From: Octopus sinensis
Lineage: Eukaryota
NCBI RefSeq assembly: GCF_006345805.1
Contig: NC_042998.1
Location: 157,232,001 to 157,296,000, forward strand
Length of the DNA: 64,000 bases
Reading direction: 5' to 3'
Below the pieces are notes generated by a model, which was not told the DNA's origin, did no database searches, and saw only the letters and a list, made by a program, of their open reading frames with translations. The first letter of the stretch is position 1. The number at the start of each line of letters is the position of its first letter. The position numbers and the translations under genes are program-made. Below are positions 1-30,055 of this stretch, piece by piece.

Positions 1-1471
1 CTGGAGGAGCAAGTCGATATCGTCCAGCGTCGTGGGACACTGGACGGATGGCCCTGTTAAGTTGCTAGGAGTCTGGTTTGGGCCAGACTCCCAAACGGAG
101 AGGAACTGGAGTGAGGTGACGAGCAAGGTGGAGGCCATAGTACGGACCTGGTCCAAGAGGTCTCTGTCCTTGAAAGGAAGGGCGGAGGTGGTACAGATGT
201 TCATTGCATCTGTAATCACTTACCGCCTGACCGTTGTCCCTTGCCCCGGTTCATGGCTTAACAAGTTGGAGCGAATCCTTTTCCGCTTTTTGTGGAAGGG
301 AGGAAAGCCACTTGTGAGGCGCTCCGTTTGCTGCCAGGAACCGTTAAAGGGTGGGTTAGGAATGCCTTGGCTGATGATGCGCAGACATGCGTTGAGGCTG
401 AAGCATCTCTGGCACCACCTGGAGGGTAATAAGGTGTGGAGTCCGCTGGCAGGGAAATTTTTCCCGAGACTGGCCTCCTTAACGGATTTTAAACCCGGTT
501 GCATCAAAAGATGGAAACTGACTTTATGGCAAAGGGAGTGCCGACAGGCACTCACGCTGATCCACAAGGCGGGCAAGGCCGGCTGCGGAAATACCACCTC
601 GGTATTTTATAGAAAGCTGGTAGAGGCAAAGAACGACGACCTCCTAGGAGGGGCTCTGGGGTTTGACGAAGACCAGCTTACCAACCTGTTTAAAAAGACT
701 TTCAGGACGGGGTACTTGGATAATTTCCAAAGATCCCTGGCCTGGCAGTGCTATAGGAATGCTCTACCTGTTCGCGAGAAGTTATCGCGGCACGGAATTC
801 CAGTGCCACCGACGTGTCCAAGGTGCGAGTTGGACGATGAAACCGTCCAGCACGCTTTTGTACACTGTCGGAAGTTGTCAGACTTGATAAGTTACGCAGA
901 ACACGTGTTATCGCATCTGGGACGAGTACAGCTGTCGACTGAGTCTATGATTAAGATGATACCGCCAACTGGACTCTCGAAGGAAGGTGAGGCATGTTTT
1001 CACTGCACGGTTGCAGTAGTAAAAGAATGCATGTGGAGAACAAGAATGGAAGGAGTCGCGATAGGATCCTTTGTCTCGGGCCCCGGCTTGCTCACTTACT
1101 TCAGATATCATCTGAAGAGCAAAATGGGGCTGGAAAAGAGGAACTTACCACGGGGTGTGTATGAGAAAAGATGGAAGGAAGTGGAAAAAAAGGTGGGTGT
1201 CAGAAACCCAGCTTAACTATGGAGGGAGGAGAGGAAACAAAAGCTGCGGGGCCTTAAAAATTGCCGGGGTTTGAAACTTCGGTAAAATCGAAAGGTTATC
1301 AACTGTGATAAGATTCTATTGGTCACGTAAAGGACAATTTATAGACGAATTTTTTTTTAATTCAAATGTTATGGAAAATTTTTAAATCGAACCTCTTAAT
1401 TATTTGTTTTGCATGTATGTTATGTATTTGTAATTCTATGTAAACGATTGTATAATCGTAATAAAGAAATT
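1..1471 (+). mobile_element. Tx1/L1-clade non-LTR retrotransposon, array copy 1 (3' part; 5' part outside window)
   Basis: ORF2 C-terminus nearly identical to copies 2 and 3; 3' UTR ends in AATAAAGAAAT (1460-1470), followed by spacer ACTATCGAAAAGACT (1472-1486). Confidence 0.93.
32..1216 (+). CDS. ORF2 C-terminal part (RT thumb region and zf-RVT zinc finger), 5'-partial
   Basis: Open frame with LSLKGRAEVVQMFI, GGLGMP and CPRCELDDETVQHAFVHC, the zf-RVT type of L1/Tx1 ORF2; stop TAA at 1214-1216. Confidence 0.9.
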   Translation: MGHWTDGPVKLLGVWFGPDSQTERNWSEVTSKVEAIVRTWSKRSLSLKGRAEVVQMFIASVITYRLTVVPCPGSWLNKLERILFRFLWKGGKPLVRRSVCCQEPLKGGLGMPWLMMRRHALRLKHLWHHLEGNKVWSPLAGKFFPRLASLTDFKPGCIKRWKLTLWQRECRQALTLIHKAGKAGCGNTTSVFYRKLVEAKNDDLLGGALGFDEDQLTNLFKKTFRTGYLDNFQRSLAWQCYRNALPVREKLSRHGIPVPPTCPRCELDDETVQHAFVHCRKLSDLISYAEHVLSHLGRVQLSTESMIKMIPPTGLSKEGEACFHCTVAVVKECMWRTRMEGVAIGSFVSGPGLLTYFRYHLKSKMGLEKRNLPRGVYEKRWKEVEKKVGVRNPA

Positions 1472-1692
1472 ACTATCGAAAAGACTCGATTCTATTCTCT
1501 AGCTACTTTTCATCTGCGTTCTGAGGAATTAGCTGCCTTTAGTTGAGAGAGTTCGTATTTTTGCTTATTGTTGTTTGTGTTAATTGTTATTTGAACAGTG
1601 CCCGTTGTATAACGGTAATTTTCGCCCTACGGGGCAGAAAATTCTGTATTGTTATTACCTGTATTGTTATTACCTTCGAGGTAATTTTTGAA

Positions 1693-3129
1693 ATGGATTT
1701 CGACTTGACGTCGAAGGATGATTTTCCCGTGATGGGAACAAGTGAATTAAAGGAAACAGAAGTACCAAAACAGTCTTTTTCGGCCGCGGTGGGCGGTGCC
1801 ATGATGGACGTTGAGTTCAAGATCGAACAACTGTTCGAATTTAGGAACCTGGTGAAGGTGGAAGGAGGCGAAATCAGGCTTGTACCGCCGCAGGCAAAGG
1901 TACAAGAAATAAAGGAGAAAACAGTCATATATAAAGTGTATAGCTACAAAGAAAAGAAAATCATGGACGTAAGAAATGAAATGGTCGAAAAGTGCCTGTC
2001 CCCGGTGTGGGACAAAATTCGCCATGTCGTTCGAGGTGCGCGTAGTGCTACTGTTGAGGCACATTTTGACTCAGCTGAGGTAGCTAGAGAGGTATCATCG
2101 TTGACCCTGAAAAACGATGACATCATGCTGCTACCCTCGTACATGGGAAAACGAACAGCGAAACTGCTGGTTGAGGACATACCGAGAGGGTATGAGATAA
2201 TGTGGGTAGCAGCGGCGGTCCTGCACAATATTGAGCGGGAAATCTCGATTCTGCAGATGAGAAAGAAAGAGGAGGTACGCTGGAAGGGACAGACGCTGGA
2301 ACTCCTCGTGCAGGCGGAAAACAAAATATTGGAGAACCTGCCCGATAGGATATTCAACGAAGACGGAACATCAATGAGAGTATCAGTGGAGGGACGTAGA
2401 CCCAGATGTTTTAAGTGTGGAGAGAAGGGTCACGTCCGCTCGAACTGCATAAAAAAGAAGAAAACAAATGAAGCTCCTCCTCAAAGTGTTCCCAACACTG
2501 AAGGGGAGAAGACAGAAAAGGATAATAACAAGACGAAGACAAGTATTGAAACAGAAACGGATTGTACCGAACAAATGGACTACACTCAAGTCACACATAA
2601 AAGAAAAAAAGACAACACCCCGGACTCCCCTCCCCAAACAAAGAAAAAATCAGCAAGCACAGCAGACATACACACCAAGCAAATCCCCCAGCCCTACCCC
2701 CATGGCACTGTTTTCATTGGGAAACAGTTTGCCAAGCCCCTCCCCATAAAACAAGATGTGAAAAAGTCTTTAAAAAAAAATGATAAGATCATTGCTTTTG
2801 ATGAAAAAAACGAAAGAGTATATAAATACTATAAATTTTCAAAATTTAAGTTATATAGTAAGGCTACAGACATAAAAGCAACCACTCGCTTCGCGAAAAT
2901 AAAGGAAGACGAGTGGAAGGAAGAAGTTCTTCAAGAGCATCTAAAGAACAGACTGATTAGAGATGTGACTAAAGAAGTAATGGAGGGCAAACTTGTGATA
3001 ACCCCGGCAACCACACCCACCCAGAGCCCGGTGGCAACGCCGGTCAAGAGCCCTGCAGCTACGACTACAAGGGAGGAAGAAGGGGAAGCGGGCAGATTTA
3101 AACTGTCATGCTCCCTTTCCCAACCGTGA
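1693..3129 (+). CDS. ORF1 gag-like nucleic-acid-binding protein with CCHC zinc knuckle
   Basis: ATG at 1693 matches the copy-3 start MDFDL; RPRCFKCGEKGHVRSNC knuckle followed by a Lys/Thr-rich low-complexity region. Confidence 0.9.
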   Translation: MDFDLTSKDDFPVMGTSELKETEVPKQSFSAAVGGAMMDVEFKIEQLFEFRNLVKVEGGEIRLVPPQAKVQEIKEKTVIYKVYSYKEKKIMDVRNEMVEKCLSPVWDKIRHVVRGARSATVEAHFDSAEVAREVSSLTLKNDDIMLLPSYMGKRTAKLLVEDIPRGYEIMWVAAAVLHNIEREISILQMRKKEEVRWKGQTLELLVQAENKILENLPDRIFNEDGTSMRVSVEGRRPRCFKCGEKGHVRSNCIKKKKTNEAPPQSVPNTEGEKTEKDNNKTKTSIETETDCTEQMDYTQVTHKRKKDNTPDSPPQTKKKSASTADIHTKQIPQPYPHGTVFIGKQFAKPLPIKQDVKKSLKKNDKIIAFDEKNERVYKYYKFSKFKLYSKATDIKATTRFAKIKEDEWKEEVLQEHLKNRLIRDVTKEVMEGKLVITPATTPTQSPVATPVKSPAATTTREEEGEAGRFKLSCSLSQP

Positions 3130-3157
3130 GTTCATTTATTTTTCTCTCTCACCTACA

Positions 3158-6100
3158 ATGGCTAAGCTGGGTTGTATAAATGTACGTGGAATGGGGTCGA
3201 AACGGAAACAAATTTGTTTCCTGAACGACCTCACGACACATGGTGTAGACATAGCTATTGCAACCGAGTCCAAGATGAGCGAGGCCCAAGCGTTCTCGCC
3301 TCTTCTAAATGGGTTCGAGAAATTTATTTCTCCTAGCCGAAGAGGAGGCAGAGGCGTGGCAGTCCTTATCATGAAGAGCTTGGACTTGCAGGTAAGTACT
3401 GTCTTTCTGGACCCAGAAGGCAGGCTGGTTGTTCTGGATGTGACTCACGTAAGTAAACAGTCCTTCAGGTTGGTAGCTGTCTACGCCCCGAACGAGGGTA
3501 AACAGACGGGTTTTTTTCGGAACCTGGAGCCCTTTTTAGCGACGTCGAAAACGGTAATCCTAGTAGGGGACTTTAACATTGTCCTTGAAGCGCGGATCGA
3601 CAGTGTTGGCTCAACCAATAGGAAGGGGAACCCTAGCCTCAGGGGTCTACTAGAGAGCTTTGATCTAGTGGACCGTTACCGACTGGATGAGCCGAGCGTT
3701 CCACAGTGGACGTGGAGTAACAACGACGGCTCACACAGATCGTATCTAGATAGGATATTTATTAAGAAAAGAGATAAGGAGACGTTTAGTTGTCCACAAT
3801 TTCATATTGTGCCTTACACGGATCACAAATTTGTGACGTGTAGGATGCAATTAGACAAGTGTCATAGACAGGGACCCGGGTACTGGAAGCTGAACAAGGC
3901 TATTTTGAATTGTGAAGACTTCCGTACCCGGATTAAGGTGTTAGTACAGAGGGCATTGTGTGGCACCATAATTAACAATAGATGGTGGCACTCCCTCAAA
4001 AGAGCCATTCGTTCAGAGTCCGTTAGATTTAGCAATCAGCTAAGGATAGATAGGGCTAGATTAGAGGGCGATTTAGTTAAGAATCTAAACGAGGCAATGG
4101 AAGCTGGCTCTGCATCCGAAGTGAGGACGGCAAGGACGGTTTTGTATCGTCACCTTAACTCCAAACACGAAGGTTGCAGAGTCAGAGCTAAGCTACGCGC
4201 TGGGAAACGAGAAGGTATTAACGTGGCCGGATGGGCCCGTCGAGTGGAGAGTCAGAGAGGCAACAAAGCCTCAATCAAATCTTTAACTGACGAACAGGGA
4301 CAAAAGATCTATGGACAGGAGGAGATGCAAAAGTTTCTTCACCAGCATTTCCCCCGCGTGTTCGGGGGTGGTGGTTTGCTGGACCGGGGGAGGGCCTTAA
4401 AGGACTTCCTGGCCGGCGGACCGCGGCTCGCGGGGCGTGAGGTGGAGTGCTGTGAAGGAGCGATCACTCCCGCGTAGATAGAGGGGATACTGGCCGGATG
4501 CGCCGGGGAGAAGTCGCCGGGGTTGGATGGTCTGCCCTACGAGTTTTACCAAAGTATGCCGGACTTGTTCGGGGGAATATTGGCAGGCGTCTACACGAAC
4601 TGGCAGCAGAATGGGAGAATTCCCAGTTCTGTAAGCCGGGGAGTGGTGACGCTAATCCAGAAAGACCCGAGCAAGGGGGATAACATTAGTAACTACAGGC
4701 CCATAACTCTACTTAATGTAGAGTTAAAGATTTTGGCCAAGGTGTTGGCAAAAAGGTTGACGGTTGTCGTGGAGAAACTTGTAGGGAGAGCACAGACGTG
4801 CAATTCCAGGCAGGTCGATCCAGGACAACCTTCACCTTATACGCTACACCTTAGATAGGGTGGGTAAATTAACCGGCAAGGGCGGGGTAATGGTCCATTT
4901 AGACCAAAGTAAAGCCTTCGATAGGGTAGACCATGAGTACCTGGCGACGGTCCTCGAAGCGGCTGGGCTGGGCCCTGAATTTCGCGGGTGGATCTCCGCT
5001 ATGTATAGCGGCATCAAGTCCACCGTCCAGATAAACGGTTACCTAACGGAACCGTTTTCGATCGAGTGTTCAGTTCGTCAGGGGTGCCCCTTGTCACCAC
5101 TTTTGTACATGTTGGCTCTTGAGCCATTGCTGCGAAAGTTGGAGAGGCTGGGAAGTAACTCGGATGAAATCGGAGGTGGGAGGACGGTTACTGCTTATGC
5201 GGATGACGTCACCCTCATCGTGTCCAAAGAGGCCCAACTACCTTGTGTAGAAGAGGCTATCAGAGGATACGAGGCGGTGGCAGGAGCAAAGGTTAACAAG
5301 GACAAGTCGGTTGGCTTGCGCCTCGGCACCTGGAGGAGCAAGTCGATATCGTCCGGTGTCGTGGGACACTGGACGGATGGCCCTGTTAAGTTGCTGGGAG
5401 TTTGGTTTGGGCCAGACTCCCAAACGGAGAAGAACTGGAGTGAGGTGACGAGCAAGGTGGAGGCCATAGTACGGACCTGGTCCGGAAGGTTTCTGTCCTT
5501 GAAAGGAAGGGCGGAGGTGGTACAGATGTTCATTGCATCTGTAATCACTTACCGCCTGACCGTTGTCCCTTGCCCCGATTCATGGCTTAACAAGTTGGAG
5601 CGAATCCTTTTCCGCTTTTTGTGGAAGGGAGGAAAGCCACTTGTGAGGCGCTCCGTTTGCTGCCAGGAACCGTTAAAGGGTGGGTTAGGAATGCCTTGGT
5701 TGATGATGCGCAGACATGCGTTGAGGCTAAGGCATCTCTGGCACCACCTGGAGGGTGATAAGGTGTGGAGTCCGCTGGCAGGGGGATTTTTCCCGACACC
5801 GGCCTCCTTAGTGAATTTTAAACCCGGTTACATCAAAAGATGGAAACTGACTTCATGGCAAAAGGAGTGCCGACAGGCACTCACGCTGATCCACAAGGCG
5901 GGCAAGGCCGGCTGCGGAAATACCACCTCGGTATTTTATAGAAAGCTGGTAGAGGCAAAAAACGACGACGTCCTAGGAGGGGCTCTGGGGTTTGACGAAG
6001 ACCAGCTTATCAGCCTGTTTAAAAAAACTTTCAGGACGGGGTATTTGGATAATTTCCAAAGATCCCTGGCCTGGCAGTGCTATAGGAATGCTCTACCTGT

Positions 6101-6545
6101 TCGCGAGAAGTTATCGCGGCACGGAATTCCAGTGCCACCGACGTGTCCAAGGTGCGAGTTGGACGATGAAACCGTCCAGCACGCTTTTGTTCACTGTCGG
6201 AAGTTGTCCGACTTGATAAGTTACGCAGAACACGTGTTATCGCATCTGGGACGAGTACAGCTGTCGGCTGAGTCTATGATTAAGATGATACCGCCAACTG
6301 GACTCTCGAAGGAAGGTGAGGCATGTTTTCACTGCACGGTTGCAGTAGTAAAAGAATGCATGTGGAGAACAAGAATGGAAGGAGCCGCGATAGGATCCTT
6401 TGTCTCGGGCCCCGGCTTGCTCACTTACTTCAGATACCATCTGAAGAGCAAAATGGGGCTGGAAAAGAGGATCTTACCACGGGGTGTGTATGAGAGAAGA
6501 TGGAAGGAAGTGGAAAAAAAGGTGGGTGTCAGAAACCCAGCTTGA
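3158..6545 (+). pseudogene. ORF2 (APE endonuclease, reverse transcriptase, zf-RVT) with premature stop and frameshift
   Basis: APE motifs NVRG, VYAPN, GDFN, LDRIF, TDH; RT motifs LDQSKAFDRV, RQGCPLSP, YADD. GAG>TAG at 4475-4477 and a 2-bp deletion near 4798 relative to copy 3 (CAGACGTGCA vs CAGACATGTGCA). Confidence 0.93.
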
Positions 6546-7028
6546 CTATGGAGGAAGGAGAGGAAACAAAAGCTGCGGGGCCTTATAAATTGCCGGGGTT
6601 TAAAAACTTCGGTGAGATCATAAGTTATGTACTGTTGTTTGTTCTACTGGTCATGTAAAGGACATTTATTTTTATTTTTATAGTGAATAATCCAAATGTA
6701 AATGAAAATTTTTAATCGAATCTCTTAACTGTTTGTTTTGCATGTATGTCCTGTATTTGTCCTTCTACGTGTGATTATATAATCATAATAAAGAAATACC
6801 ACTATTGAAAAGACTGCTTTCCTTTTTCATCTGCGTTGTGAGAAATTTGCTGCCTTTGTTGAGAGAGTTCGTATTTTTGCTTATTGTTGGTTGTGTTAAT
6901 TGTTATTTGAACAGTGCCCGTTGTGTAACGGTAATTTTCGCCCTACGGGGCAGAAAATTCTGTATTTAAAATTTTGTATTTAAAATTGTTATTACCTTCG
7001 AGGTAATTTTTGAAACATTTTTTGTGAA

Positions 7029-8462
7029 ATGGATTTCGACTTAGCGTCGAAGAATGATTTTCCCGCGATGGGAACAAGTGAATTAAAGGACACGGAAGTA
7101 ACGAAACAGTCTTTTTCGGCCGCGGTAGGCGGAACCATGATGGACGTTGAATTCAAGATCGAACAACTGTTCGAGTTTAGGAACTTGGTGAAAATGGAAG
7201 GAAACGAGATCAGACTTGTGCCGCCGCAAGCGAAGGTACAAGAAATAAAGGAAAAAACAGTGATATACAAAGTGTATAGCTACAAAGAAAAGAAAATTAT
7301 GGACGTCAGGAATGAAATTGTCGAAAAGTGCTTGACCCCGGTGTGGGACAAAATTCGCCATGTCGTTCGAGGTGCTCGAAGCGCTACTGTTGAAGCGCAT
7401 TTCGACACAGCTGAGGTAGCAAGAGAGGTGTCGTCATTGACCCTGAAAAATGATGACATCATGCTGCTACCCTCGTATATGGGAAAACGAACAGCGAAAC
7501 TGCTGGTAGAGGACATACCCAGAGGGTACGATATTATGTGGGTAGCAGCGGCGGTCCTGCACAATGTTGAGCGGGAGATTTCGATTCTGCAGATGAGAAG
7601 GAAAGAGGAGGTACGCTGGAAGGGACAGACGCTGGAACTCCTCGTTCAAGCGGAGAACAAGATATTGGAGAACCTGCCCGATAGAATATTTAACGAAGAT
7701 GGAACGTCCATGAGAGTGTCGGTGGAGGCACGCAGACCCAGATGCTTTAAATGTGGCGAGAAGGGGCACGTCCGCTCGAACTGCTTAAAAAAAAAGAAAA
7801 CAAATGAAGCCCCTCCTCAAAGTGCTTCTAACACTGAAGGGGAGAAGGGAGAAAAAGAAAACAAGACGACGACAAGAAAAGAAACAGAAACGGATTGTAC
7901 CGAACCAATGGATTTTACACAGGTGTCACACAAAAGAAAAAAAGTCAACACCCTGGACTCCCCTCCCCAAACAAGGAAAAAATCAGCAAGCACCACAGAC
8001 ACACACATAAAGCAAATTCCCCAGCCCTATCCCCATGGCACTGTTTTCATTGGGAAACAGTTTGCCAAGCCCCTCCCCATAAAACAAGATGTGAAAAAGT
8101 CTTTAAAAAAAAATGATAAGATCATTGCTTTTGATGAAAAAAACGAAAGGGTATATAAATACTATAAATTTTCAAAATTCCAACTTTTTAGCAAGGCCAC
8201 AGACATAAAAGCTACCACTCGCTTCGCAAAAGTGGGGGAAGACGGGTGGAAGGAGGAAGTACTGCAGGAACACCTAAAGAACAGACTAATTAGAGATGTG
8301 ACAAAAGAAGTACTGGAGGGTAAACTTGTGATAACCCCGGCAACCACACCCACCCAGAGCCCGGTGGCAACGCCGGTCAAGAGCCCTGCAGCTACGACTA
8401 CAAGGGAGGAAGAAGGGGAAGCGGGCAGATTTAAACTGTCATGCTCCCTTTCTCAAACGTAA
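7029..8462 (+). CDS. ORF1 gag-like protein with CCHC zinc knuckle (477 aa)
   Basis: Homologous to copy-2 ORF1; RPRCFKCGEKGHVRSNC. Confidence 0.92.
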   Translation: MDFDLASKNDFPAMGTSELKDTEVTKQSFSAAVGGTMMDVEFKIEQLFEFRNLVKMEGNEIRLVPPQAKVQEIKEKTVIYKVYSYKEKKIMDVRNEIVEKCLTPVWDKIRHVVRGARSATVEAHFDTAEVAREVSSLTLKNDDIMLLPSYMGKRTAKLLVEDIPRGYDIMWVAAAVLHNVEREISILQMRRKEEVRWKGQTLELLVQAENKILENLPDRIFNEDGTSMRVSVEARRPRCFKCGEKGHVRSNCLKKKKTNEAPPQSASNTEGEKGEKENKTTTRKETETDCTEPMDFTQVSHKRKKVNTLDSPPQTRKKSASTTDTHIKQIPQPYPHGTVFIGKQFAKPLPIKQDVKKSLKKNDKIIAFDEKNERVYKYYKFSKFQLFSKATDIKATTRFAKVGEDGWKEEVLQEHLKNRLIRDVTKEVLEGKLVITPATTPTQSPVATPVKSPAATTTREEEGEAGRFKLSCSLSQT

Positions 8463-8488
8463 GTTCCTTTATTTTTCTCTCACCGACA

Positions 8489-11400
8489 ATGGCTAAGCTG
8501 GGTTGTGTGAATGTACGTGGAATGGGGTCGAAATGGAAGCAAATTTGCTTCCTGAACGACCTCACGACACATGGAGTAGACATAGCTATTGCAACCGAGT
8601 CCAAGATGAACGGGGCCCAAGCGTTATCGCCTCTTCTAAATGGGTTCGAGAAATTTATTTCTCCTAGCCGAGGAAGAGGCAGAGGCGTGGCAGTCCTTAT
8701 CATGAAGAGCTTGGACTTGCAGGTAAGTACTGTCTTTCTGGACCCAGAAGGCAGGCTGGTTGTTCTGGATGTGACCCACGTAAGTAAACAGTCCTTCAGG
8801 TTGGTAGCTGTCTACGCTCCGAACGAGAGTAGACAGACGGGTTTTTTTCGGAACCTGGAGCCCTTTTTAGCGACGTCGAAAACGGTAATCCTAGTAGGGG
8901 ACTTTAACACTGTCCTTGAAGCGCGGGTCGACAGTGTTGGCTCAACCAATAGGAAGGGGAACCCTAGCCTCAAGGGTCTACTAGAGAGCTTTGATCTAGT
9001 AGACCGTTACCGACTGGATGAGCCGAGCGTTCCACAGTGGACGTGGAGTAACAACGACGGCTCACGCAGATCGTATTTAGATAGGATATTTATTAAGAAA
9101 AGAGATAAGGACACGTTTAGTTGTCCACAGTTCCACATTGTGCCTTACACGGATCACAAATTTGTGACGTGTGGGATGCAATTGGACAAGTGTCATAGAC
9201 AGGGACCCGGGTACTGGAAGCTGAACAAGGCTATTTTGAATTGTGAAGACTTCCGTACCCGGATTAAGGTGTTAGTACAGAGGGCATTGTGTGGCACCAT
9301 CATTAACAATAGATGGTGGCACTCCCTCAAAAGAGCCATTCGTTCAGAGTCCATCAGATTTAGCAATCAGCTAAGGTTAGATAGGTCTAGGATAGAGGAC
9401 GATCTAGTTAAGAATCTAAACGAGGCAATGGAAGCTGGCTCTGCATCCGGAGTGTTGGCGGCAAGGACGGTATTGTACCGTCACCTTAACTCCAAACACG
9501 AAGGTTGCAGAGTCAGAGCTAAGCTACGCGCTGGGAAACGAGAAGGTATTAACGTTGCCGGATGGGCCCGTCGAGTGGAGAGTCAGAGAGGCAACAAAGC
9601 CTCAATCAAATCTTTAACTGACGAACAGGGACAAAAGATCTATGGACAGGAGGAGATGCAAAAGTTTCTTCACCAGCATTTCGCCCACGTGTTCGGGGGT
9701 GGTGTGGCGCCGGAGCGGGGGAGGACCTTAAAGGACTTCCTGGCCGGCGGACCGCGGCTCTCGGGGCGTGAGGTGGAGTGCTGTGAAGAAGCGATCACTC
9801 CCGCGGAGATAGAGGGGATACTGGCCGGATGCGCCGGGGAGAAGTCGCCGGGGTTGGATGGTCTGCCCTACGAGTTTTACCAAAGTATGCCGGACTTGTT
9901 CGGGGGAATATTGGCAGGCGTCTACACGAACTGGCAGCAGAATGGGAGAATTCCCAGCTCTGTAAGCCGGGGAGTGGTGACGCTAATCCAGAAAGACCCG
10001 AGCAAGGGGGATAACATTAGTAACTACAGGCCCATAACTCTACTTAATGTAGAGTTAAAGATTTTGGCCAAGGTGTTGGCAAAAAGGTTGACGGTTGTCG
10101 TGGAGAAACTTGTAGGGAGAGCACAGACATGTGCAATTCCAGGCAGGTCGATCCAGGACAATCTTCACCTTATACGCTACACCTTAGACAGGGTGGGTAA
10201 ACTAACCGGCAAGGGCGGGGTAATGGTCCATTTAGACCAAAGTAAAGCGTTCGATAGGGTAGACCATGAGTACCTGGCGACGGTCCTCGAAGCGGCTGGG
10301 CTGGGCCCTGAATTTCGCGGGTGGATCTCCGCTATGTATAGCGGCATCAAGTCCACCGTCCAGATAAACGGTTACCTAACGGAACCGTTTTCGATTGAAT
10401 GTTCAGTTCGTCAAGGGTGCCCCTTGTCACCACTTTTGTACGTGTTGGCTCTTGAGCCATTGATGCGAAAGTTGGAGAGGCTGGGAAGCAACTCGGATGA
10501 GATCGGAGGTGGGAGGACGGTTACTGCTTATGCGGATGACGTCACCCTCATCGTGTCCAATGAGGCCCAGCTACCTTGTGTGGAAGAGGCTATCAGAGGG
10601 TACGAGGCGGTGGCAGGAGCAAAGGTTAACAAGGACAAGTCGGTTGGCTTGCGCCTCGGCACCTGGAGGAGCAAGTCGATATCGTCCAGCGTCGTGGGAC
10701 ACTGGACGGATGGCCCTGTTAAGTTGCTAGGAGTCTGGTTTGGGCCAGACTCCCAAACGGAGAGGAACTGGAGTGAGGTGACGAGCAAGGTGGAGGCCAT
10801 AGTACGGACCTGGTCCGGAAGGTTTCTGTCCTTGAAAGGAAGGGCGGAGGTGGTACAGATGTTCATTGCATCTGTAATCACTTACCGCCTGACCGTTGTC
10901 CCTTGCCCCGGTTCATGGCTTAACAAGTTGGAGCGAATCCTTTTCCGCTTTTTGTGGAAGGGAGGAAAGCCACTTGTGAGGCGCTCCGTTTGCTGCCAGG
11001 AACCGTTAAAGGGTGGGTTAGGAATGCCTTGGTTGATGATGCGCAGACATGCGTTGAGGCTGAAGCATCTCTGGCACCACCTGGAGGGTGATAAGGTGTG
11101 GAGTCCGCTGGCAGGGAAATTTTTCCCGAGACTGGCCTCCTTAGCGGATTTTAAACCCGGTCGCATCAAAAGATGGAAACTGACTTTATGGCAAAGGGAG
11201 TGCCGACAGGCACTCACGCTGATCCACAAGGCGGGCAAGGCCGGCTGCGGAAATACCACCTCGGTATTTTATAGAAGGCTGGTAGAGGCAAAGAACGACG
11301 ACGTCCTAGGAGGGGCTCTGGGGTTTGACGAAGACCAGCTTACCAACCTGTTTAAAAAGACTTTCAGGACGGGGTACTTGGATAATTTCCAAAGATCCCT

Positions 11401-11935
11401 GGCCTGGCAGTGCTATAGGAATGCTCTACCTGTTCGCGAGAAGTTATCGCGGCACGGAATTCCAGTGCCACCGACGTGTCCAAGGTGCGAGTTGGACGAT
11501 GAAACCGTCCAGCACGCTTTTGTACACTGTCGGAAGTTGTCAGACTTGATATGTTACGCAGAACACGTGTTATCGCATCTGGGACGAGTACAGCTGTCTG
11601 CTGAGTCTATGATTAAGATGATACCGCCAACTGGACTCTCGAAGGAAGGTGAGGCATGTTTTCACTGCACGGTTGCAGTAGTAAAAGAATGCATGTGGAG
11701 AACAAGAATGGAAGGAGTCGCGATAGGATCCTTTGTCTCGGGCCCCGGCTTGCTCACTTACTTCAGATATCATCTGAAGAGCAAAATGGGGCTGGAAAAG
11801 AGGAACTTACCACGGGGTGTGTATGAGAAAAGATGGAAGGAAGTGGAAAAAAGGTGGGTGTCAGAAACCCAGCTTAACTATGGAGGGAGGAGAGGAAACA
11901 AAAGCTGCGGGGCCTTAAAAATTGCCGGGGTTTGA
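8489..11935 (+). CDS. ORF2 polyprotein: APE endonuclease, reverse transcriptase, zf-RVT
   Basis: Uninterrupted frame; ATG 8489 (MAKLGC) is equivalent to copy-2 ATG 3158; catalytic motifs present. One A is missing in the run at ~11847-11852 relative to copies 1 and 2, which changes only the extreme C-terminus. Confidence 0.93.
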   Translation: MAKLGCVNVRGMGSKWKQICFLNDLTTHGVDIAIATESKMNGAQALSPLLNGFEKFISPSRGRGRGVAVLIMKSLDLQVSTVFLDPEGRLVVLDVTHVSKQSFRLVAVYAPNESRQTGFFRNLEPFLATSKTVILVGDFNTVLEARVDSVGSTNRKGNPSLKGLLESFDLVDRYRLDEPSVPQWTWSNNDGSRRSYLDRIFIKKRDKDTFSCPQFHIVPYTDHKFVTCGMQLDKCHRQGPGYWKLNKAILNCEDFRTRIKVLVQRALCGTIINNRWWHSLKRAIRSESIRFSNQLRLDRSRIEDDLVKNLNEAMEAGSASGVLAARTVLYRHLNSKHEGCRVRAKLRAGKREGINVAGWARRVESQRGNKASIKSLTDEQGQKIYGQEEMQKFLHQHFAHVFGGGVAPERGRTLKDFLAGGPRLSGREVECCEEAITPAEIEGILAGCAGEKSPGLDGLPYEFYQSMPDLFGGILAGVYTNWQQNGRIPSSVSRGVVTLIQKDPSKGDNISNYRPITLLNVELKILAKVLAKRLTVVVEKLVGRAQTCAIPGRSIQDNLHLIRYTLDRVGKLTGKGGVMVHLDQSKAFDRVDHEYLATVLEAAGLGPEFRGWISAMYSGIKSTVQINGYLTEPFSIECSVRQGCPLSPLLYVLALEPLMRKLERLGSNSDEIGGGRTVTAYADDVTLIVSNEAQLPCVEEAIRGYEAVAGAKVNKDKSVGLRLGTWRSKSISSSVVGHWTDGPVKLLGVWFGPDSQTERNWSEVTSKVEAIVRTWSGRFLSLKGRAEVVQMFIASVITYRLTVVPCPGSWLNKLERILFRFLWKGGKPLVRRSVCCQEPLKGGLGMPWLMMRRHALRLKHLWHHLEGDKVWSPLAGKFFPRLASLADFKPGRIKRWKLTLWQRECRQALTLIHKAGKAGCGNTTSVFYRRLVEAKNDDVLGGALGFDEDQLTNLFKKTFRTGYLDNFQRSLAWQCYRNALPVREKLSRHGIPVPPTCPRCELDDETVQHAFVHCRKLSDLICYAEHVLSHLGRVQLSAESMIKMIPPTGLSKEGEACFHCTVAVVKECMWRTRMEGVAIGSFVSGPGLLTYFRYHLKSKMGLEKRNLPRGVYEKRWKEVEKRWVSETQLNYGGRRGNKSCGALKIAGV

Positions 11936-12748
11936 AACTTCGGTAAGATCGAAAGGTTATGAACTGTGATAAGATTCTATTGGTCACGTAAAGGACAATT
12001 TATAGACGAATTTTTTAATCCAAATGTTATGGAAAATTTTTAAATCGAACCTCTTAATTATTTGTTTTGCATGTATGTTATGTATTTGTAATTCTATGTA
12101 AACGATTGTATAATCGTAATAAAGAAATTACTATTGAAAAGACTGCCTCCACGCGCTGCTACTACACTTTCGTCCTTGCCAGCAAAAGGCTTCTTCGTTC
12201 GTCCCCTTGTGTGGTTGATTTCCTGTATAGTATTCTTGTTATTTTCTCGTTTTGTAACTAATTGTACTTTTTGTACATGTATTTTTATTTTTGCAGTTTT
12301 ATCGTTTGTCTATGCCAGAAAAAAGGCTTTTTCGTTCGTCCTCTTGTGTTTGTTTTTGTACATGTATTTTAATTTTGCAGTCTTATTGTTACGTCTTGTT
12401 TGTGTTCGTACTCATTTTGCCCCGCTGCTTGAAATTTTATTTTAATTCTCTCGCAGGAAGGCCTATTGGATTAGTGTTCTGTTATGCTTCGAAACATGCC
12501 TGACTCCTCTAGCGACAGCTGATGACGGGGGTTTTGTCCTTGTGTAGCTCGTCCTGTATTTGTTTTTCGTTTTCTTGTTCTTCGTTTTCCGTTTTCTTGT
12601 TTTTTGTTTTTTGTTTTTTTCCGTTTCTACGTCTTATTGTGATGTCCTGTACTCCCGTATAATTATTTGTATATGCATGTATATATACATGTAGATGTAG
12701 GTACGTACATATATGTTTGTATGTATGCATATATTTTTATTTATCTCC

Positions 12749-18368: not shown

Positions 18369-18404
<36 letters not shown>

Positions 18405-18968: not shown

Positions 18969-18970
18969 TG

Positions 18971-19059
<89 letters not shown>

Positions 19060-19087
19060 ATCTATCTATCTATCTATCTATCTATCT

Positions 19088-19154
<67 letters not shown>

Positions 19155-19155
19155 G
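18969..19155. repeat. (TCTA)n microsatellite
   Basis: Long, nearly perfect tetranucleotide run. Confidence 0.95.
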
Positions 19156-21662: not shown

Positions 21663-21698
<36 letters not shown>

Positions 21699-21700
<2 letters not shown>

Positions 21701-21860
21701 CGCAGGAGTGGCTGTGTGGTAAGTAGCTTGTCTATCAACCACATGGTTCCGGGTTCAGTCCCACTGCGTGGCACCTTGGGCAAGTGTCTTCTACTATAGC
21801 CTCGGGCTGACCAAAGCCTTGTGAGTGGATTTGGTAGACGGAAACTGAAAGAAGCCCGTC

Positions 21861-21895
<35 letters not shown>

Positions 21896-22114
21896 TGTGT
21901 GTGTTTGTGTGTCTGTGTTTGTCCCCTAGCATTGCTTGACAACCGATGCTGGTGTGTTTATGTCCCCGTTACTTAGCGGTTCGGCAAAAAGAGACCGATA
22001 GAATAAGTACTGGGCTTACGAAGAATAAGTCCCGGGGTCGAGTTCCTCGATTAAAGGCGGTGCTCCAGCATGGCCGCAGTCAAATGACTGAAACAAGTAA
22101 AAGAGTAAAAGAGT
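21699..22114 (+). mobile_element. tRNA-derived SINE, family 1 (octopus-type) with internal TA/TG microsatellite
   Basis: Head with A box TGGCTGTGTGGT and B-box-like GGTTCAGTCCC; tail ...CAAATGACTGAAACAAGTAAAAGAGT; several near-identical copies in the window. Confidence 0.88.
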
Positions 22115-22133
22115 ATATAAATATACATATATA

Positions 22134-22530
22134 TGATTATAGTAAATAAATTTTACTGATGTTTGTCAATTGAATCTCTTCTCCCTTTTCTTCCTTGCCT
22201 TATAAAAATTCTGGATAAACTTTTGTTTACCTACACTTGTACATATTATTCAATTGTATTATTGCCTTGCAACAGATAGTAAGTATTTGAATATAAATAG
22301 GAGTTAGAGGTTAGACAATCATCTAAGGGATAATATATATCCAGTATACTACTGGAGGGATACCTATTTATATTCAAAGACTTACTATCTGTTGCAAGGC
22401 AATAGTACCATTGAATAATATGTACAAGTGTAGGTAAACAAAAGTTTATCCAGAATTTTTATAAGGCAAGGAAGAAAAGGGAGAAGAGATTCAATTGACA
22501 AACATCAGTAAAATTTATTTACTATAATCA
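22134..22530. repeat. Long inverted repeat, 168-bp arms (22134-22301 and 22363-22530), 61-bp spacer
   Basis: Arms are reverse complements with about 3 mismatches. Confidence 0.93.
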
Positions 22531-22680
22531 CAGGAATAAATAAACAAATACATATGTCCACTCTTACAGCTGTTTCTACTTGGTGGGCTTATCTTTGACT
22601 TTCAAGCAAGTTTTTCTTTCGCAAGATATTTTGCAGTCGTTATATATACACGACTCCTATCATTTTTCGTCATTGATAAC

Positions 22681-25600
22681 TGTTGTATGCTCCATCTCCA
22701 ATGTCGTGGTACCGCCACGATATTGTGATGGATGGTTTAGATACACTGTACCTGTGTAATAATAGTAACCAAGATAACGATGCACCCGTAATAACAACGT
22801 AACGATCCAACAATCTCTTCATGTACCAACAATCGAACTAAGCAACCTACACCTACCAACTTCACTGCTGACTCAACTCGAACTAACATATACAAACTTC
22901 ACTCCGACGCTCGGTCCAGTCTATTTCTCGCAAGGGGACGTCGTGAATCTCATCACCACATCTTCCTTTTCGGGATTTCGACTTCCGTAAGAAGTGAAAT
23001 TTATTTTCTTCTTTCTTTTTCCAGCAACTCTCCCCCTCTCACTCTCTCTTTAAAATTTAATATCTTTTGCGTTTTGGCATTATTTCTCAATGTACAGTCT
23101 GTTTCTTTTTTCTACTGCTGCTTCTAGGAGGCTCAATCTCTTTCGGTGATGGCACCTCAAACATGCCACAGCAGACTTCTTTTCGTTTTACAGTATGTCT
23201 CACTTTTAATTGGTTTAGGTGTCTCTTATATCCCAAACTTTATCCTTTAATTATATACATCATGTTACCTAATCATTCAGTTACAAAACCATCCTCCCAG
23301 CCTTCTTTGCTATTCTTTAGAATTTTAAAATGAGCTTTATCTCCTACTTCGAAATGTTTTGTTGCCTTTTCTGTATTTCCAAGAAATATATTTTTACCTG
23401 GCAATAATCGATTTTATTTTTCGTGCGAACGTTAACTCTTCCGGAGACTTTCGTGAACTAGTATTCGGACTGGGCGTTACTCTATACACCCTCAAGAATT
23501 TCGTTAGCGCTTCGTCATTACCTACGTTATTCCTCGCTATTTTTTAACGCTAGCTTGAAAGTATCAACGAATTTTTCTATCAGTCCGTTTGACCTCGGGT
23601 GGTAGGGCAGATAAAAATATGCTTTATCGCATGAATTTTGTAGAAATTTTTGAATTCATTATCCGTTCCCTTATCTGATACCAACGTGTCTGGAACACCG
23701 TATCGGGCAAATAATTCAGACAGGAACTTTATTGTTGTCTTTGCGGTTGTCTTTGTACCGCTATCAACAACGATTAGATAGTATGCGTCGTTCACCGGTC
23801 CAGCATAGTCGATATGTACGCTGGACCACAGACTATTCGTTTCGAGCCACGATTGGCAGTGCTTTGGCTATTACCGCACAACCTCTAGATGATTTTACAT
23901 AATTTTTAATGTCACGGCCCATAGTCAGCCAATATACATAGGTCCTCATTAAGGCTTTCATTCTCGACATTACAGGTGTCCCCTGTGGAATTTCTTCAAT
24001 ATTTGTTTCTGTAGTGCAGTTGGCATTACCACTCTTTGCATGTATATTAAAAAGTCATCGCACAGTGAAAAATTATTCGAATTTGTATTTTTATTTTGCT
24101 TATTTTTCAACATTTCTTTCATTCTTTTAATGTAATTATTCTCTGCGGATTTCATTTTCATATCATGCGCTGTCACTGGTAGTTTGTGAATAACATTACT
24201 ACACAACGTTTTTAGTTAATTTTTTTCTTCAATTCAGCTGCCGAGTTCTTTTCACTGGTGGGTCAGCCATTTAATTTTTTTTACAGTACCAGCTTATTGG
24301 GATATCCCGTAAGTCAAATAATTCCAACCAGTCGGTACCAAACAGATTGGTTGCGTTCTTTATGACGAAAACTTTCGCCTTGCTAATTTTTCCTCGAAAC
24401 CTGACATCATTCCACATTTCGCCTACAAGGTGTAGTTTGTTACTCGTCACGCCACGTGCAGTTTTCGCTGTTTTTCTTAACATAGGTTTCCCTATTTTCT
24501 TCCACGTAACTAGTTGTAATTTAATTTGTAATTTAAGTAATCTCCGTTTAGCTTTACATGTACAAATTTTCTTATTTGGGAGTCGATTTTACTTTCTGTT
24601 AAGAGCACTTTAGGATTTTTTATATTCGATCTTCGTAATTTAGTTCTGCAATGTGAAGTTTTGTGTCCAAACTTTTGACAACTGTAAAATTGTTTGTTTT
24701 TAAAAAGACAATCTTTTCTGAAATGTAGGCTTCCACATTTGTAACATGGATTAGTACCTAGCAATCTTCTTTGCTTATACTTTCTCTGTCGACATATCTG
24801 TATTTTTGCGAAATCCTTTTCCTGAATTTTTCTTAGGTCATGTTTTAGGTTCACCATTCTTTGATACTCGTCTGCAACAGTCAAGGTTTTGAAAGTATTC
24901 TTGCCCGTATTTCTGTATCTTAATTTGCTGTAAGGTCTTGTACAAAAATGGCGCATTGAAACATCTCAGGAGTAAGTCCTTTAAGGTTAAAAAGTTTCAC
25001 ACATTCTGTTGACTGTTCCTGCATACGTAATAAAATCATCATCCGCATTTTTTTTTAGTTAAATTGCAACAATTTGATTGTTTCCTGAAAATAAATTTCC
25101 CTAGACTGTTTGGGCAATATGAAATTACAGTATGGTTCATGCTCGGATGGAGCCATTTTATGTAATAATAACCTTATTTTTTCTTCGTCCGACCATGTTT
25201 TGAAAAATCTTCTCATACCTTCTGTAGTACGCTGTAAAAGTTATACCCTCCTCTGGATTATAACTGAATTCTGTTATGGAGTACGATACAACGTCTGCCG
25301 AAGATAAACTTACCGCATTTCTGGACTTCTTTGCGTATAGCTCCAATAATTGTTGTAGTTTTTGATGTGCTAGTTGCTTCTGCATCACCTGTTGCTGTTC
25401 TTATTGCTTTAGCAACTGTATTATAGGAGCTAATAAGTATTCCATCATTTAACAAGCTGTATCACGAACAAGTTAAATAACCTACGTGAGCTTCGAAACC
25501 CTCGTCAGATGTAACCTCTGTCTCCAGTATCGTGGTGCCGCCACGATATTGTGACGGATGGTTTAGGTACACTGTACAAGTGTAGTAATAGTAAACAAGA

Positions 25601-25722
25601 TAACGATGCAGCCGTAATAACAACGTAACAATACAACAATCTCTTCACGAACCAACAATTCCAAACACACTAACCAACCGACATCTTCCGACTTCGCTGA
25701 AGACTCAACTTGAGCTAACACA
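22681..25722 (-). mobile_element. Decayed Ty3/Gypsy LTR retrotransposon, RT/RNase H region deleted
   Basis: 3' LTR 22681-22960 (TG...CA on minus) preceded by purine tract CCGAAAAGGAAGA; partial 5' LTR 25510-25722 followed by PBS-like TCTGACGAGG; gag knuckle CYKCGSLHFRKDC; integrase VHIDYAGP...LIVVDS...FARYGVPDTLVSD. Confidence 0.9.
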
Positions 25723-27359
25723 CTATTTCTTTATTACCCACTAGGGGTGACACAGAGAAATACATCACAACACATTGGGGACATAGAACAATTTAAAATT
25801 ATGAGAAATGAATTTTAAAATAAAAATGATAAAAATGAAAGCGGTGCTGAACGGCCCCATCCGCCAGCACCACTTACCTGTCCTTTATCACCCATTTCCA
25901 ATCACAAGTCCTTCCTTTCCTATCACACTCTTCGTTTTCCTTTCATACTTCTCTATCACTTCATCCTGCATTGGCACTGTCATACATTTTATACACTCTT
26001 CCTCACACCTCCTCACCAATGTGTCCATAAATTCATCTTTCAAAACCGCGTAACTACCATCTTCATGTTCGCGCCATAAGTCTTTATGTAGTATTTTTTT
26101 TGAGTTCTGGGTGTCCTTCTTCCTCGCAACACATAAAAAATAGGTCCTGGGACTTTGTTCGTTCTGTGTGTCTGCATTTGCTTTTGTTTTTCCTGTTGGC
26201 GGGGAGTGGGTGGAATCGCTGTTTGCAGGGGAAGGATGAGACTCAGAGGGTACGGGTGGTGTTGGGGTGGGTTGGGTTTCGTACTGTTTGCTTTTTTCTT
26301 TTTTTTCTCCCTTCTTCCCACTCTTGCTGGTTTTCCTCCTCTTCAGGTGCTTCCCTTTCTGTTTGGTTCTCCTTTTCTTCAGTGTCTTCCTTTTTTTTGG
26401 GGTTCCGTTTCCTTTTCCTTTGGTGGGGGTGGGCAGTTGGCTCTTATGTGGCCTCTCTGGCCACACTTATAACATCGTGGGGCTCTGCCCTCCACCCACA
26501 CTCTCATAATAATGTTCCCTGTTCTTATAGTATCTGTCAGCCTTTCTATTGTTTCCGCCTCCGTCTGTATATTCATGTCCAAGGTAGCACCTCTCACGCC
26601 TTCGTATTTCATAGTGGCGTGGAGGATGTCCACCTTTTCCTCGTTTCCCTTAATCACCGCTGCCGTTATGTATTCACCCTCTAGGTGTGGGGGTATTCCC
26701 TCCACCCTAAATCTTGTGGTCCTTCTATTTAAATACGAGGGCAGTAAGTATATCTTCTCCGTTTTTACCACCTTGGCTGCCATTTTTCTGGCGACGTTCT
26801 CACTTCTATATTGAACCGTTACAGTTCCATACTCCATTCTTCTTGTCAGGTAAACAATTTCCTCTCCAGTCTGTTTCAATGCCTCTTCAATAGCTTCCAT
26901 ATTTACTATCTCAATCCTTCTTCCTCCATTCACGTACACTCTATATTTGATGGTTCTACGGTTGAACCACTCGCCACGCTTTGCTGGAGGTGACAGCTCG
27001 ACTTCGCCGTTCTCCTCCTCTTTCATAAAATCCTGGAAGCCTGGTAATTTTGCCAGGTCTACCTCTTTTTCTTTCGGCCTCATCACTCCTGCATACGTCT
27101 TTTCCAGCCTTCTATCCATTTCTTCCACTGCTCTTTCCAACTCCTCCTCAGATGACGATAATTCCGACAAACTTTCAAATAAATTCTACCCGGCCATCTC
27201 ACCCGGCCATAATCACCTCAGACAGACAACGGCCGCCAGAACAGACGCCGTGTGACGCGAAACCGTATCAACAATTATTCAAACAATAAATATTTAAATA
27301 ACAAATATGGCAACTTACAATAGAAATACTCCAGTTCCTCAAAACACGTACGACCTGAA
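25723..27359 (-). mobile_element. Tx1-related ORF1-only non-autonomous retroelement, copy A (~1.64 kb)
   Basis: 5' UTR, gag-like ORF1, short 3' UTR ending GGGTAATAAAGAAATAG, no ORF2; flanked by direct repeat CAACTTGAGCTAACACA at 25706-25722 and 27360-27376. Confidence 0.88.
25888..27197 (-). pseudogene. ORF1 gag-like protein (CCHC knuckle) with an early stop and a frameshift after the knuckle
   Basis: YLLPSYLNRRT and MRVWVEGRAPRCYKCGQRGHIRANC align with array-1 ORF1 (MLLPSYMGKRT, MRVSVEGRRPRCFKCGEKGHVRSNC); in-frame ATG at 27197 has TAG at codon 4; C-terminus continues in the frame ending at 25888. Confidence 0.85.
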
Positions 27360-27376
27360 CAACTTGAGCTAACACA

Positions 27377-28999
27377 CTATTTCTTTATTACCCACCAGGG
27401 GCTACGAAGAGGGGACATTACAAAACATTGGGAACATAGAACATTATAATTAAATTTATGAGCAATGAATTATTAAATGACAAAATGGTAATATGAAAGC
27501 GATGCTAACGGCCCCATCCGCCAGCATCACTTACCTGTCCTTTATCACCCACTAGCAGTATCGCCCGGCGTTGCTCAGGTTTGTAAGGGAAATAACTATA
27601 AAGCATTTTTAGAGAGTTATAGCCAAAAAATAGCAAAAAAATGGAAAAAAATTATGGTAAATTTTTTTGAGAGTAAAAAAAGGTGGAGTTGCGTCCCCTA
27701 GACAGTTTGCGGTTTGTGTTTCTGATTCTCGACCCCATGTCGAATTTATCGATTTTTTTCAGAACTGGGGGAACTTTTCAAAATCTTCGCTGCGTTAGTT
27801 TTGAATTATGACATTGGGCTATGTGTGTGTCAAGTTTCATCAGAATCGGTTGAAAGCCGTGGTCAGGGTGAGGGTACAAGCAAACAGACACACAGAAACA
27901 CGCACAGACAAACTGCCGTTTATATAGAGAGAGATTTCCAATTACAATTCCTAGCTTTTCTATCACACTCTTTGTTTTCCTTTCATACTTCTCTATCATT
28001 TCATCCTGCATTGGCACTGTCATCCATTTTATACGCTCTTCCTCACACCTCCTCACCAATGTGTTCATAAATTCATCTTTCAAAACCGCGTAACTACCAT
28101 CTTCATGTTAGCGCCATAAGTCTTTATGTAGTATTTTTTTTGAGTTCTGGGTGTCCTTCTTCCTCGCAACACATAAAAAATAGGTCCTGGGACTTTGTTC
28201 GTTCTGTGTGTCTGCATTTGGTTTTGTTTTTCTTGTAGGCGGGGAGTGGGTGGAATCGCTGTTTGCAGGGGAAGGATGGGACTCAGAGGGTACGGGTGGT
28301 GTTGGGGTGGGTTGGGGTTTCGTACTGTTTTCTTTTTCTTTTTTTTCTCCCTTCTTCCCACTCTTGCTGGATCTCCTCCTCTTCAGTTGCTTCCCTAACT
28401 GTTTGGTTCTCCCTCTACTTGGTGTCTTCCTTCTTTTGGGGCTCCGTAACGATTTCCTTTTCCTTTGGTGGGGGAGGGCAGTAGGCTCTTATGTGACCCC
28501 TCAGGCCACACTTATAGCACCTGGGCGCCCTGCCCTCCACCCACACTCTCATAATAATGTTCCCCGTTCCTATATTCTCTGTCAGCCCCTCCATTGTTTC
28601 CGCTTCTGTCTGTACATTCATCTCCAAGGTAGCACCTCTCACGCCTTCGTATTTCATAGTGGCGTGGAGGATGTCCACCCTTTCCTCGTTTCCCTTAATC
28701 ACCGCTGCCGTTATGTATTCACCCTCTAGGTGTGGGGGTATTCCCTCCACCCTAAATCTTGTGGTCCTTCTATTTAAATACGAGGGCAGTAAGTATATCG
28801 TCTCCGTTTTTACCACCTTGGCTGCCATTTTTCTGGCGACGTTCTCACTTCTATATTGAACCGTTACAGTTCCATACTCCATTCTTCTTGTCAGGTAAAC
28901 AATTTCCTCTCCAGTCTGTTTCAATGCCTCTTCAATAGCTTCCATATTTACTATCTCAATCCTTCTTCCTCCATTCACGTACACTCTATATTTGATGGT
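27377..28999 (-). mobile_element. Tx1-related ORF1-only element, copy B (5'-truncated, interrupted by a Helitron)
   Basis: Colinear with copy A from the 3' end up to TTTGATGGT (28999); 3' UTR and knuckle region diverged from copy A. Confidence 0.88.
27552..27934 (-). mobile_element. Non-autonomous Helitron (383 bp)
   Basis: Absent from copy A (TCACCCA|TTTCC). On minus it starts with TC, ends with CTAG preceded by a GC-rich hairpin (CCTGAGCAACGCCGGG), and sits between A and T without TSD. Confidence 0.88.
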
Positions 29000-29779
29000 A
29001 AGACCATAGAGATGGTAAGACCATAGTGGATCTTCTTTTAACATAATGCATGTCCACTTACAGGTCATCACTCTTATATATATGTACAATAATTTTTTCT
29101 GAAACTTTTTTCTGAATCTAACAGTTATTTCTAGCCGTTCGATTGATATCGTTGGAATTTCCTGGTATTAACTATGAAATTTCCTGGTATTAACCATGAA
29201 ATTGAAAACGAAACGCTACTGATACTTCAAAATCTATGCAAACCATAGCACACAGGCTGAATATCAAAAGACCGATACTTCTTATGTATCTCATTAGTCG
29301 AAATGCATTTAAAATTTTTACATTTATATTTATAGCCTACGAATTCTGGCTTGTATGCCTTAAGATAGGGTCAGATCACCAGAGTTTACCGATAGAAGTG
29401 TCACTATGGAAATAGATCCCGCAAAGTTGTACAATTTACATTGAGTGTCTATGTGGAATCTACTTATGTCGCTGAGGTGATGTCACTGAGAATATGATAT
29501 ATGCATGATACACTAATTAAAAGTTTGAATTTGTTAATGAGATTTTCGTAAATTTAACTGGAAAAGAGCGGTGGATAACATAATCAATAAACCGCCGGAG
29601 AAACATTCTAAGTTTGATTTCTAGAATGGTCAATAAAATAATGTTCAGTCGATTTAATCAACCGTCAGCCAACCCAAAAATGTTTGGCGATGTGCATGTA
29701 TTAGAAGTCAATTTATTGAAGTTGAAATTACAAAAGCGGTCTATTCCGTATCGATTTCTTACATTGGCTCAGTCACTTA

Positions 29780-29925
29780 TTTAATGGGGAGGGGATATAA
29801 TCGATAGAATCGATCTCCGAATACATTTTATTTCATCAATCAGAAAAAGCAACGTCAGTTACAGCGAGGTTTGAACTCAAAATACAAAGAGACAAAATGA
29901 AACACAGTTAAACATACTACCATTC
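29780..29925 (-). mobile_element. Degraded SINE fragment related to 61034-61244
   Basis: Degenerate match to the body of the 61034-61244 element (ATCGATCTCCGA...TTTGAACTCA). Confidence 0.45.
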
Positions 29926-30055
29926 ATTCAACTGTTTCCTTTTATCATTGATATAACATGGTGACAGTTGATAAATTCTTACTTACCTCATAAATTTTAT
30001 TATCATGTCGATTTATTTTATAACTCTGGGAAAGTTGAAAGATTAAGTCGAATAT

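Follow-up and report, generated by a model that had tools for sequence, protein, structure and literature searches.

Two copies, here called A and B, of a small mobile element without a copying enzyme of its own lie head to tail inside a long terminal repeat (LTR) of a decayed Gypsy element in Octopus sinensis. They are separated by a short spacer that derives from the LTR itself, and the arrangement is probably the product of two insertions that came from different source lineages and used one and the same nick, after which the adjoining copies likely underwent gene conversion. What is observed is the layout, the derivation of the spacer from the LTR, the dispersed copies with other flanks and the synonymous bias in the divergence between A and B; the order of events is reconstructed from these observations. 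The window is the whole stretch of 64,000 nucleotides that was analysed (contig NC_042998.1, positions 157,232,001 to 157,296,000). Read in the orientation of the elements (minus strand), the locus runs from foreign DNA through B (28999-27378), the spacer, A (27359-25724) and the spacer again into the rest of the LTR, with the following features.

22684..22960, minus strand: uninterrupted 3' LTR of the decayed Gypsy element, 277 bp, TG...CA; the empty-site control, with 83% identity to 25510-25720.
22874..22891, minus strand: stretch of the intact LTR that corresponds to the spacer, 14/17 with three transitions, the 18th base also a transition.
22961-22970: purine tract beside the intact 3' LTR.
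22961..25509, minus strand: Gypsy internal region with short broken frames, DUF7083 at 25058-25400, Integrase_H2C2 at 23836-24054 and a weak rve match at 23583-23867.
25510..25723, minus strand: interrupted 5' LTR, its first ~70 bp absent from the window.
25706..25723, minus strand: the copy of the 17-18 nt target-site duplication that lies downstream and runs on into the LTR; a public contig (X1, record 2) spans 25712-25778 with 0 differences.
25724..27359, minus strand: copy A, an ORF1-only non-LTR element of 1636 bp, apparently full length, with a 5' UTR of ~160 nt, ORF1 at ~27197-25888 and a 3' UTR of ~165 nt.
27360..27377, minus strand: spacer between B and A, identical to 25706-25723; the 5' junction of A was also found in X5, record 31.
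27378..28999, minus strand: copy B, 5'-truncated, with two in-frame stops and a later insertion.
27552..27934, minus strand: 383-bp insertion in B with Helitron-like ends TC...CTAG, placed between the letters A and T.
28994..29026, plus strand: 5' junction of B, a direct duplication of 16 nt, the first 6 of which fall within the element.

The host element has two LTRs, a purine tract and an integrase after the gag region, which are the features of Gypsy/Ty3 membership; its assignment to Gypsy was made from the domain order and DUF7083, taken as characteristic of the group. It is decayed, and the domain search detected no RT domain in the internal region 22961..25509. Since the host lies on the minus strand with its intact 3' LTR at 22684-22960, the right-hand LTR is the 5' LTR, interrupted ~70 bp from its start, and no copy of the LTR remainder (~70 bp, the equivalent of 22891-22960) was found elsewhere in the 64-kb window. 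A long inverted repeat (22097-22567; 205-nt arms, 90%, 61-nt centre), which is probably a MITE, lies just left of the Gypsy 3' LTR.

A preliminary description of this DNA had reported that a 17-mer at 25706-25722 recurs at 27360-27376 and matches the sister LTR at 22874-22890; the first match is without any difference and the second is 14/17, its 3 mismatches all being transitions, exactly as described. When every 17-nt window of the 64 kb was compared with the 17-mer on either strand, those within four mismatches started at 25706 (0), 27360 (0) and 22874 (3), while ~6e-6 exact matches are expected by chance in the 64-kb window and the chance of at least 14/17 at a fixed register is ~1e-6. The LTRs align over 22684-22888 and 25510-25720 (83% identity); upstream of the spacer, 162/190 columns are identical (85%) and 28/190 differ, which compares with 14/17 (82%) in the spacer, and after its position 17 six consecutive mismatches to the sister LTR follow. 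Because the spacer matches at the background LTR-LTR identity and homology ends right after it, the spacer is LTR-derived. Its 18th base is one further transition relative to the sister LTR, and the spacer may be 17 or perhaps 18 nt long (25706-25723, 27360-27377), since the commonest end of other copies with displayed junctions is 25724.

ORF1 of copy A is broken by an early stop and two frameshifts, and the 3' UTR ends with AATAAAGAAATA and carries no poly(A). The insertion at 27552..27934 in B is a candidate non-autonomous Helitron-like element, labelled by the Helitron end rule. The 3' ends of A and B adjoin the same base, as had been claimed. At its other end, B stops at 28999 and adjoins unrelated DNA through a junction that looks like microhomology-mediated joining; no third spacer was found at this 5' end, where an outer target-site duplication with continuing target is absent, so that the outer 5' spacer of the textbook pattern is lost rather than contradicted.

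The 17-mer follows both 3' ends, and it might in principle be the element's own 3' tail that resembles the LTR by chance, a reading to which next to no probability is attached given the chance value of ~1e-6. Public-run contigs were compared from 4 of the 24 listed runs over 25300-27553 and from 2 of these 4 over 25640-25870, and loose ends were read from the best 24 of 925 and the best 12 of 45 rows; contig depth serves as a rough guide and not as copy number, and contigs drop rare forms. Among the matches listed, 6 contigs in X1 and 3 in X2 stop at 25724 and pass into mixed sequence (agreement 0.48 and 0.57), loose ends at 27378/27379 occur in 4 contigs of X3 and 3 of X5, and the agreement over loose ends in X1, X2, X3 and X5 is 0.48-0.63. 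Contigs X1#3, X2#10 and X2#11 carry 76-98 nt of the family 3' UTR and exit at 25724 into an unaligned flank, X1#3 and X2#11 probably being one locus, and a further contig group (4 and 5 among the matches listed) matches on to 25718 and then leaves. The junction of A itself with the LTR is covered without a difference by X1#2, at depth 54. As other copies end at the same element base (25724) next to unrelated flanks and lack the 17-mer, the element-tail origin was rejected and, within the limits of these contigs, the spacer is target DNA, which is what the preliminary description had proposed and had named as the point to be checked against the family consensus. For repeat annotation, such spacers belong outside the family consensus.

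The last ~34 nt of the element (25724-25757, 27378-27411) are common to a very abundant repeat with a summed depth of ~200,000 in X1, which is probably a SINE whose tail comes from this LINE clan and of which no copy was found in the 64-kb window. Since these 34 nt are shared, many loose-end contigs may not be ORF1-only copies.

A single insertion that is duplicated between its own target-site duplications gives the same layout, and the case for two insertions therefore rests on the divergence between A and B. The two copies differ at 53 positions in 1061 nt, and the differences are clustered, with 0 of 20,000 permutations reaching either 29 differences in 200 nt or a near-identical run of 319 nt, which rules out a simple segmental duplication with uniform decay. 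The earlier statement that A and B differ markedly holds for the 3' UTR (21/167) and around the knuckle (23/220) but fails at 26640-26954, where 1/315 nt differs. For the full set of 176 ungapped codons, pS is 0.10 and pN is 0.03 (13 vs 11, p=0.002), and over the 72 codons at 26424-26639, a block picked after the data were seen, pS is 0.25 and pN is 0.06 (13 vs 10, p=0.001). The predominance of synonymous differences points to different replicating lineages and thus favours two insertions, as neutral decay after duplication would not give such a bias.

The near-identical block points the other way on the independence of the copies. At a decay rate of 3%, a single difference in 315 nt has P ~8e-4, and within the block the two copies have in common, at 26840 and 26910, letters that occur in 0/38 and 0/17 of the covering contigs, the one at 26840 replacing a glycine conserved in ORF1 homologues. 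At 12 positions where the family depth mostly differs from A (taken from the best 40 of 782 rows), B shares the letter of A at 6, the family letter at 5 and a third letter at 1. Because of the near-identity and the two private alleles, the two copies go back in part to a common local source, through either local conversion or part-duplication, and cross-talk in assembly polishing is also possible for this block. A rival history starts from a single insertion that was doubled when its two target-site duplications took part in unequal exchange or slippage, after which dispersed family members overwrote parts of one copy; it would give both the layout and the block with its private alleles. This history is considered rather unlikely, for it calls for two or more long tracts of ectopic conversion, one of which comes within ~22 nt of the 3' end, in addition to a local one, and the synonymous excess speaks against it. 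Conversion between neighbours is, as a general rule, commoner than conversion from distant copies. Two separate events of target-primed reverse transcription (TPRT) at the same nick, as first proposed, thus stand as the best reading by the synonymous excess but fall short of proof at this locus, where unequal exchange gives the same layout, a block is homogenised and the outer 5' spacer is lost.

A related array of full-length LINEs lies ~14 kb from A/B and has the same layout with another spacer.

1..12146, plus strand: head-to-tail array of at least three full-length EN-RT LINEs (5.33 kb units), each ending AATAAAGAAAT.
1472-1486, 6801-6815 and 12130-12144: shared 15-nt core after each LINE unit, also present at the 3' flank of the array.

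Units 2 and 3 of the array have different 5' starts, 3' junctions that are 2 nt apart and spacers of different length, and their ORF1 differs with a pS of 0.25 and a pN of 0.04; they appear to be a stronger sign of separate events than A/B. Their divergence is mosaic, 6-13% in ORF1 and the UTRs and 0.4-6% in ORF2, and unit 3 has an open EN-RT frame of 1166 aa. Duplication is at work in the array too, since units 1 and 3 are ~99% identical and have their 3' junction in common; this is a point in favour of unequal exchange at A/B as well. As there is no empty site for the array, a target origin of its spacer is something that we infer.

Several further observations were made on the array. Unit 2 has a 19-nt 5' extension (1487-1505) that is not in unit 3 and has the length of a target-site duplication. 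The LINE 3' ends (6760-6797 and 12090-12128) would form a terminal hairpin with a paired change between units 2 and 3, and the 3' ends of A and B also share a predicted terminal stem; the z-scores of these 3'-end folds are weak (-0.6 to -1.6), and the folds carry no weight in the argument. The flank at 12129-12660 contains internal repeats and, near 12490-12530, hammerhead-like core words in an unusual order; it may be a Penelope-type terminal repeat used as a target, and it has no Rfam match, while 12455-12565 folds no better than shuffles. Outside the octopus, the ORF2 homologues in the protein clusters of P0020 (Patella caerulea, 11 members) and P0025 (Metynnis hypsauchen) carry near-consecutive locus tags, which suggests that related LINEs form long tandem arrays in this limpet and this fish as well.

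In the preferred sequence of two insertions, an endonuclease/RT supplied in trans by a LINE would nick the target, reverse transcription would start at the exact 3' end of an RNA without poly(A), and a second nick 17-18 nt away would lead to duplication of the target. The site regenerated in this way could then be used again by a second copy; by analogy with R1, B most likely entered the 5' duplication of A. Target DNA would have been lost when the 5' end of B was resolved, or that end was deleted afterwards, and gene conversion between the neighbours after insertion would have produced the homogenised block. The nick, priming, second nick, duplication, re-use and ORF2 in trans are steps that we infer from established TPRT. 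Re-use of the same base could be due to a weak motif preference together with the regenerated site, as has been published, to guidance by the resident end or to an RT jump within one event.

The last of these would place A and B in a single event, in which the RT copied the RNA of A and then the target overhang of 17-18 nt before switching to a second RNA (B), whose 5' end was then joined to distant DNA by microhomology, so that the resident or nascent element and not a target motif sets the site. Identical junctions would then arise without sequence specificity, and the microhomology junction of B and the missing LTR remainder would be accounted for; the three tandem arrangements with three unrelated spacers and the similar numbers of disabling changes in A and B also agree with it. 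Such a jump is nevertheless judged unlikely, as it has no direct evidence, the junctions of LINE units 2 and 3 are 2 nt apart and fit separate nicks, and published tandems are explained by sequential insertion.

Even less probability, only a few chances in a hundred, is given to the idea that the spacer is a 5' tag on the RNA of A, acquired at an earlier landing in another LTR of this family and steering A to this site. The 5' extension of LINE unit 2 would agree with such a tag, as would one contig (X1, X3) in which the same 3' end lies inside an LTR relative ~185 bp from the A/B site, as compared by eye. The spacer, however, equals the local target at 18/18 while sister LTRs differ by 15% (chance of no mismatch ~0.06), no extra letters stand between the spacer and the 5' start of A, and a search of the rest of the window with the unit 2 extension gave no match at fewer than 5 mismatches. 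The 3' end in that contig may belong to the abundant short repeat.

Two insertions at one nick raise the matter of site preference. In X1, depth is ~50-90 on the LTR side of the junction vs 200-850 on the family 3' UTR. The LTR-side depth is thus near single-locus level, and among the matches listed the loose ends are heterogeneous, so that a fixed target at this LTR base was rejected; within the limits of the contigs, this base is not a common target. Among the matches listed, the flanks at this LTR position stay below the share (one target in >20% of flanks) by which Kojima defines a target-specific Tx1 family, and no sequence preference explaining the re-use of one base was found. One contig (X1 and X2) joins a 3' end via 20 unrelated letters to a copy starting at 25840. 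It is conceivable, with a probability of about a quarter, that in a poly(A)-less L1/Tx1-like clan, comprising ORF1-only and full-length elements that all end in AATAAAGAAAT, new copies enter precisely at the junction of a resident one and need no fixed target sequence; the element end or a one-event RT jump would set the nick, and any landing site could seed a chain. If true, such target-independent re-use would be a new rule for site choice by the LINE endonuclease/RT and would lead directly from single insertions to arrays of LINEs.

The family of A and B appears to belong to the ORF1-present non-autonomous LINEs (HAL1-like), since it encodes ORF1p and no ORF2. ORF1 continues directly into the 3' UTR without an ORF2 between, a tblastn search with the ORF2 of the neighbouring LINE gave no match in A or B at E<=1, and zf-CCHC is the only Pfam domain in A/B. 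ORF1 shares 34% identity over 225 aa (E 3e-39) with the ORF1 of the EN-RT LINE in the window, whose ORF2 has human L1 ORF2p as its best PDB match (E 3e-69, vs 1e-25 for R2), and it is thus homologous to the ORF1 of an autonomous L1-group LINE; the C-terminal ORF1 comparison is weak (E 0.02), and the match to the neighbouring LINE at the 3' end covers the last 12-13 nt only. The predicted ORF1 model (pLDDT 87.5, 25 sequences) matches tandem-RRM proteins and would comprise two RRM-like domains and, after them, a CCHC knuckle. Strict membership in HAL1, by descent from mammalian L1, was rejected, as no L1 ORF1 Pfam family was present among the 25 aligned ORF1 homologues and the fold search with the model returned generic tandem-RRM proteins; the family functions like HAL1 but is not HAL1. 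It appears to be mobilised as a unit, with 3' ends at other flanks and selection on ORF1 (pN/pS between A and B ~0.28), the contigs being short and the ORF1-only state being seen in A and B. Contigs leaving at 27543, which are also short, share the whole 3' UTR with different upstream sequence.

The label 'Tx1-like' is our presumption from the EN-RT-zf-RVT layout and the knuckle ORF1. The 61 homologues are mostly unnamed, with no named Tx1 reference among them, and among the named ORF2 homologues that of the limpet Patella comes closest (28%). An HMMER scan with ORF1 gave 335 unnamed matches, and a word-based protein search with ORF1 left 0 of 792 candidates at E<=1e-10. The 3'-end pattern of the element had no match in either metagenome or viral contigs (0 loci in each). 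Rfam on 11800-30000 returned 31 weak matches, all under the gathering score and none within 22000-30000, so the target there is not a small-RNA gene.

Octopus repeat annotation describes 13 recently active L1-Tx1 families (PMC13282606); 'ORF1' is absent from its main text, and its supplements may hold the A/B family. No description of the family was found in titles or abstract starts, the search covering these outside Repbase and most subscription papers. Tandem insertion separated by a target-site duplication is already published for R1, jockey and SINEU-3. R1 of Drosophila forms head-to-tail copies separated by a 14-bp target-site duplication, which the study explains by insertion into the duplication of a resident copy, with precise 3' junctions (Stage and Eickbush, 2009; PMC2718515). 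The spacer of A/B equals target DNA as in R1; R1, however, is autonomous and uses one 28S site, whereas the A/B family is ORF1-only and its flanks are varied. Dimers that arise by double insertion are reported across classes of transposable elements; the non-LTR ones, including jockey, carry a local target duplicated at the junction and distinct 5' truncations and are reported to expand later by unequal exchange (McGurk and Barbash, bioRxiv 10.1101/158386). Unlike the jockey dimers, A and B belong to another clade and host and come from diverged lineages, with a conversion tract.

The crocodilian Tx1-Mar, SINEU-3, Tx1-8_Crp and Tx1-4_AMi include non-autonomous tandems that sandwich a target-site duplication, arise by sequential insertion and are nested in transposons, and two crocodilian Tx1 families prefer LTR retrotransposons (Kojima, 2015; PMC4494074). 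SINEU-3 has no ORF, and 313/347 of its copies flank one target family (PMC4494074), whereas the A/B family has ORF1 and showed no such target preference. HAL1, HeT-A and Ag-Sponge are described as ORF1-present non-autonomous LINEs (PMC5786205, PMC5753468), and like them the A/B family encodes ORF1p only and would depend on a LINE in trans. It differs from them in its independent origin within an invertebrate L1/Tx1-like lineage, in an ORF1 that combines two predicted RRM-like domains with a CCHC knuckle, and in having no poly(A) tail. To these systems, A/B contributes an ORF1-only derivative of a LINE from an invertebrate and a clean case of what is probably double insertion, in which the sister LTR serves as an internal empty-site control.
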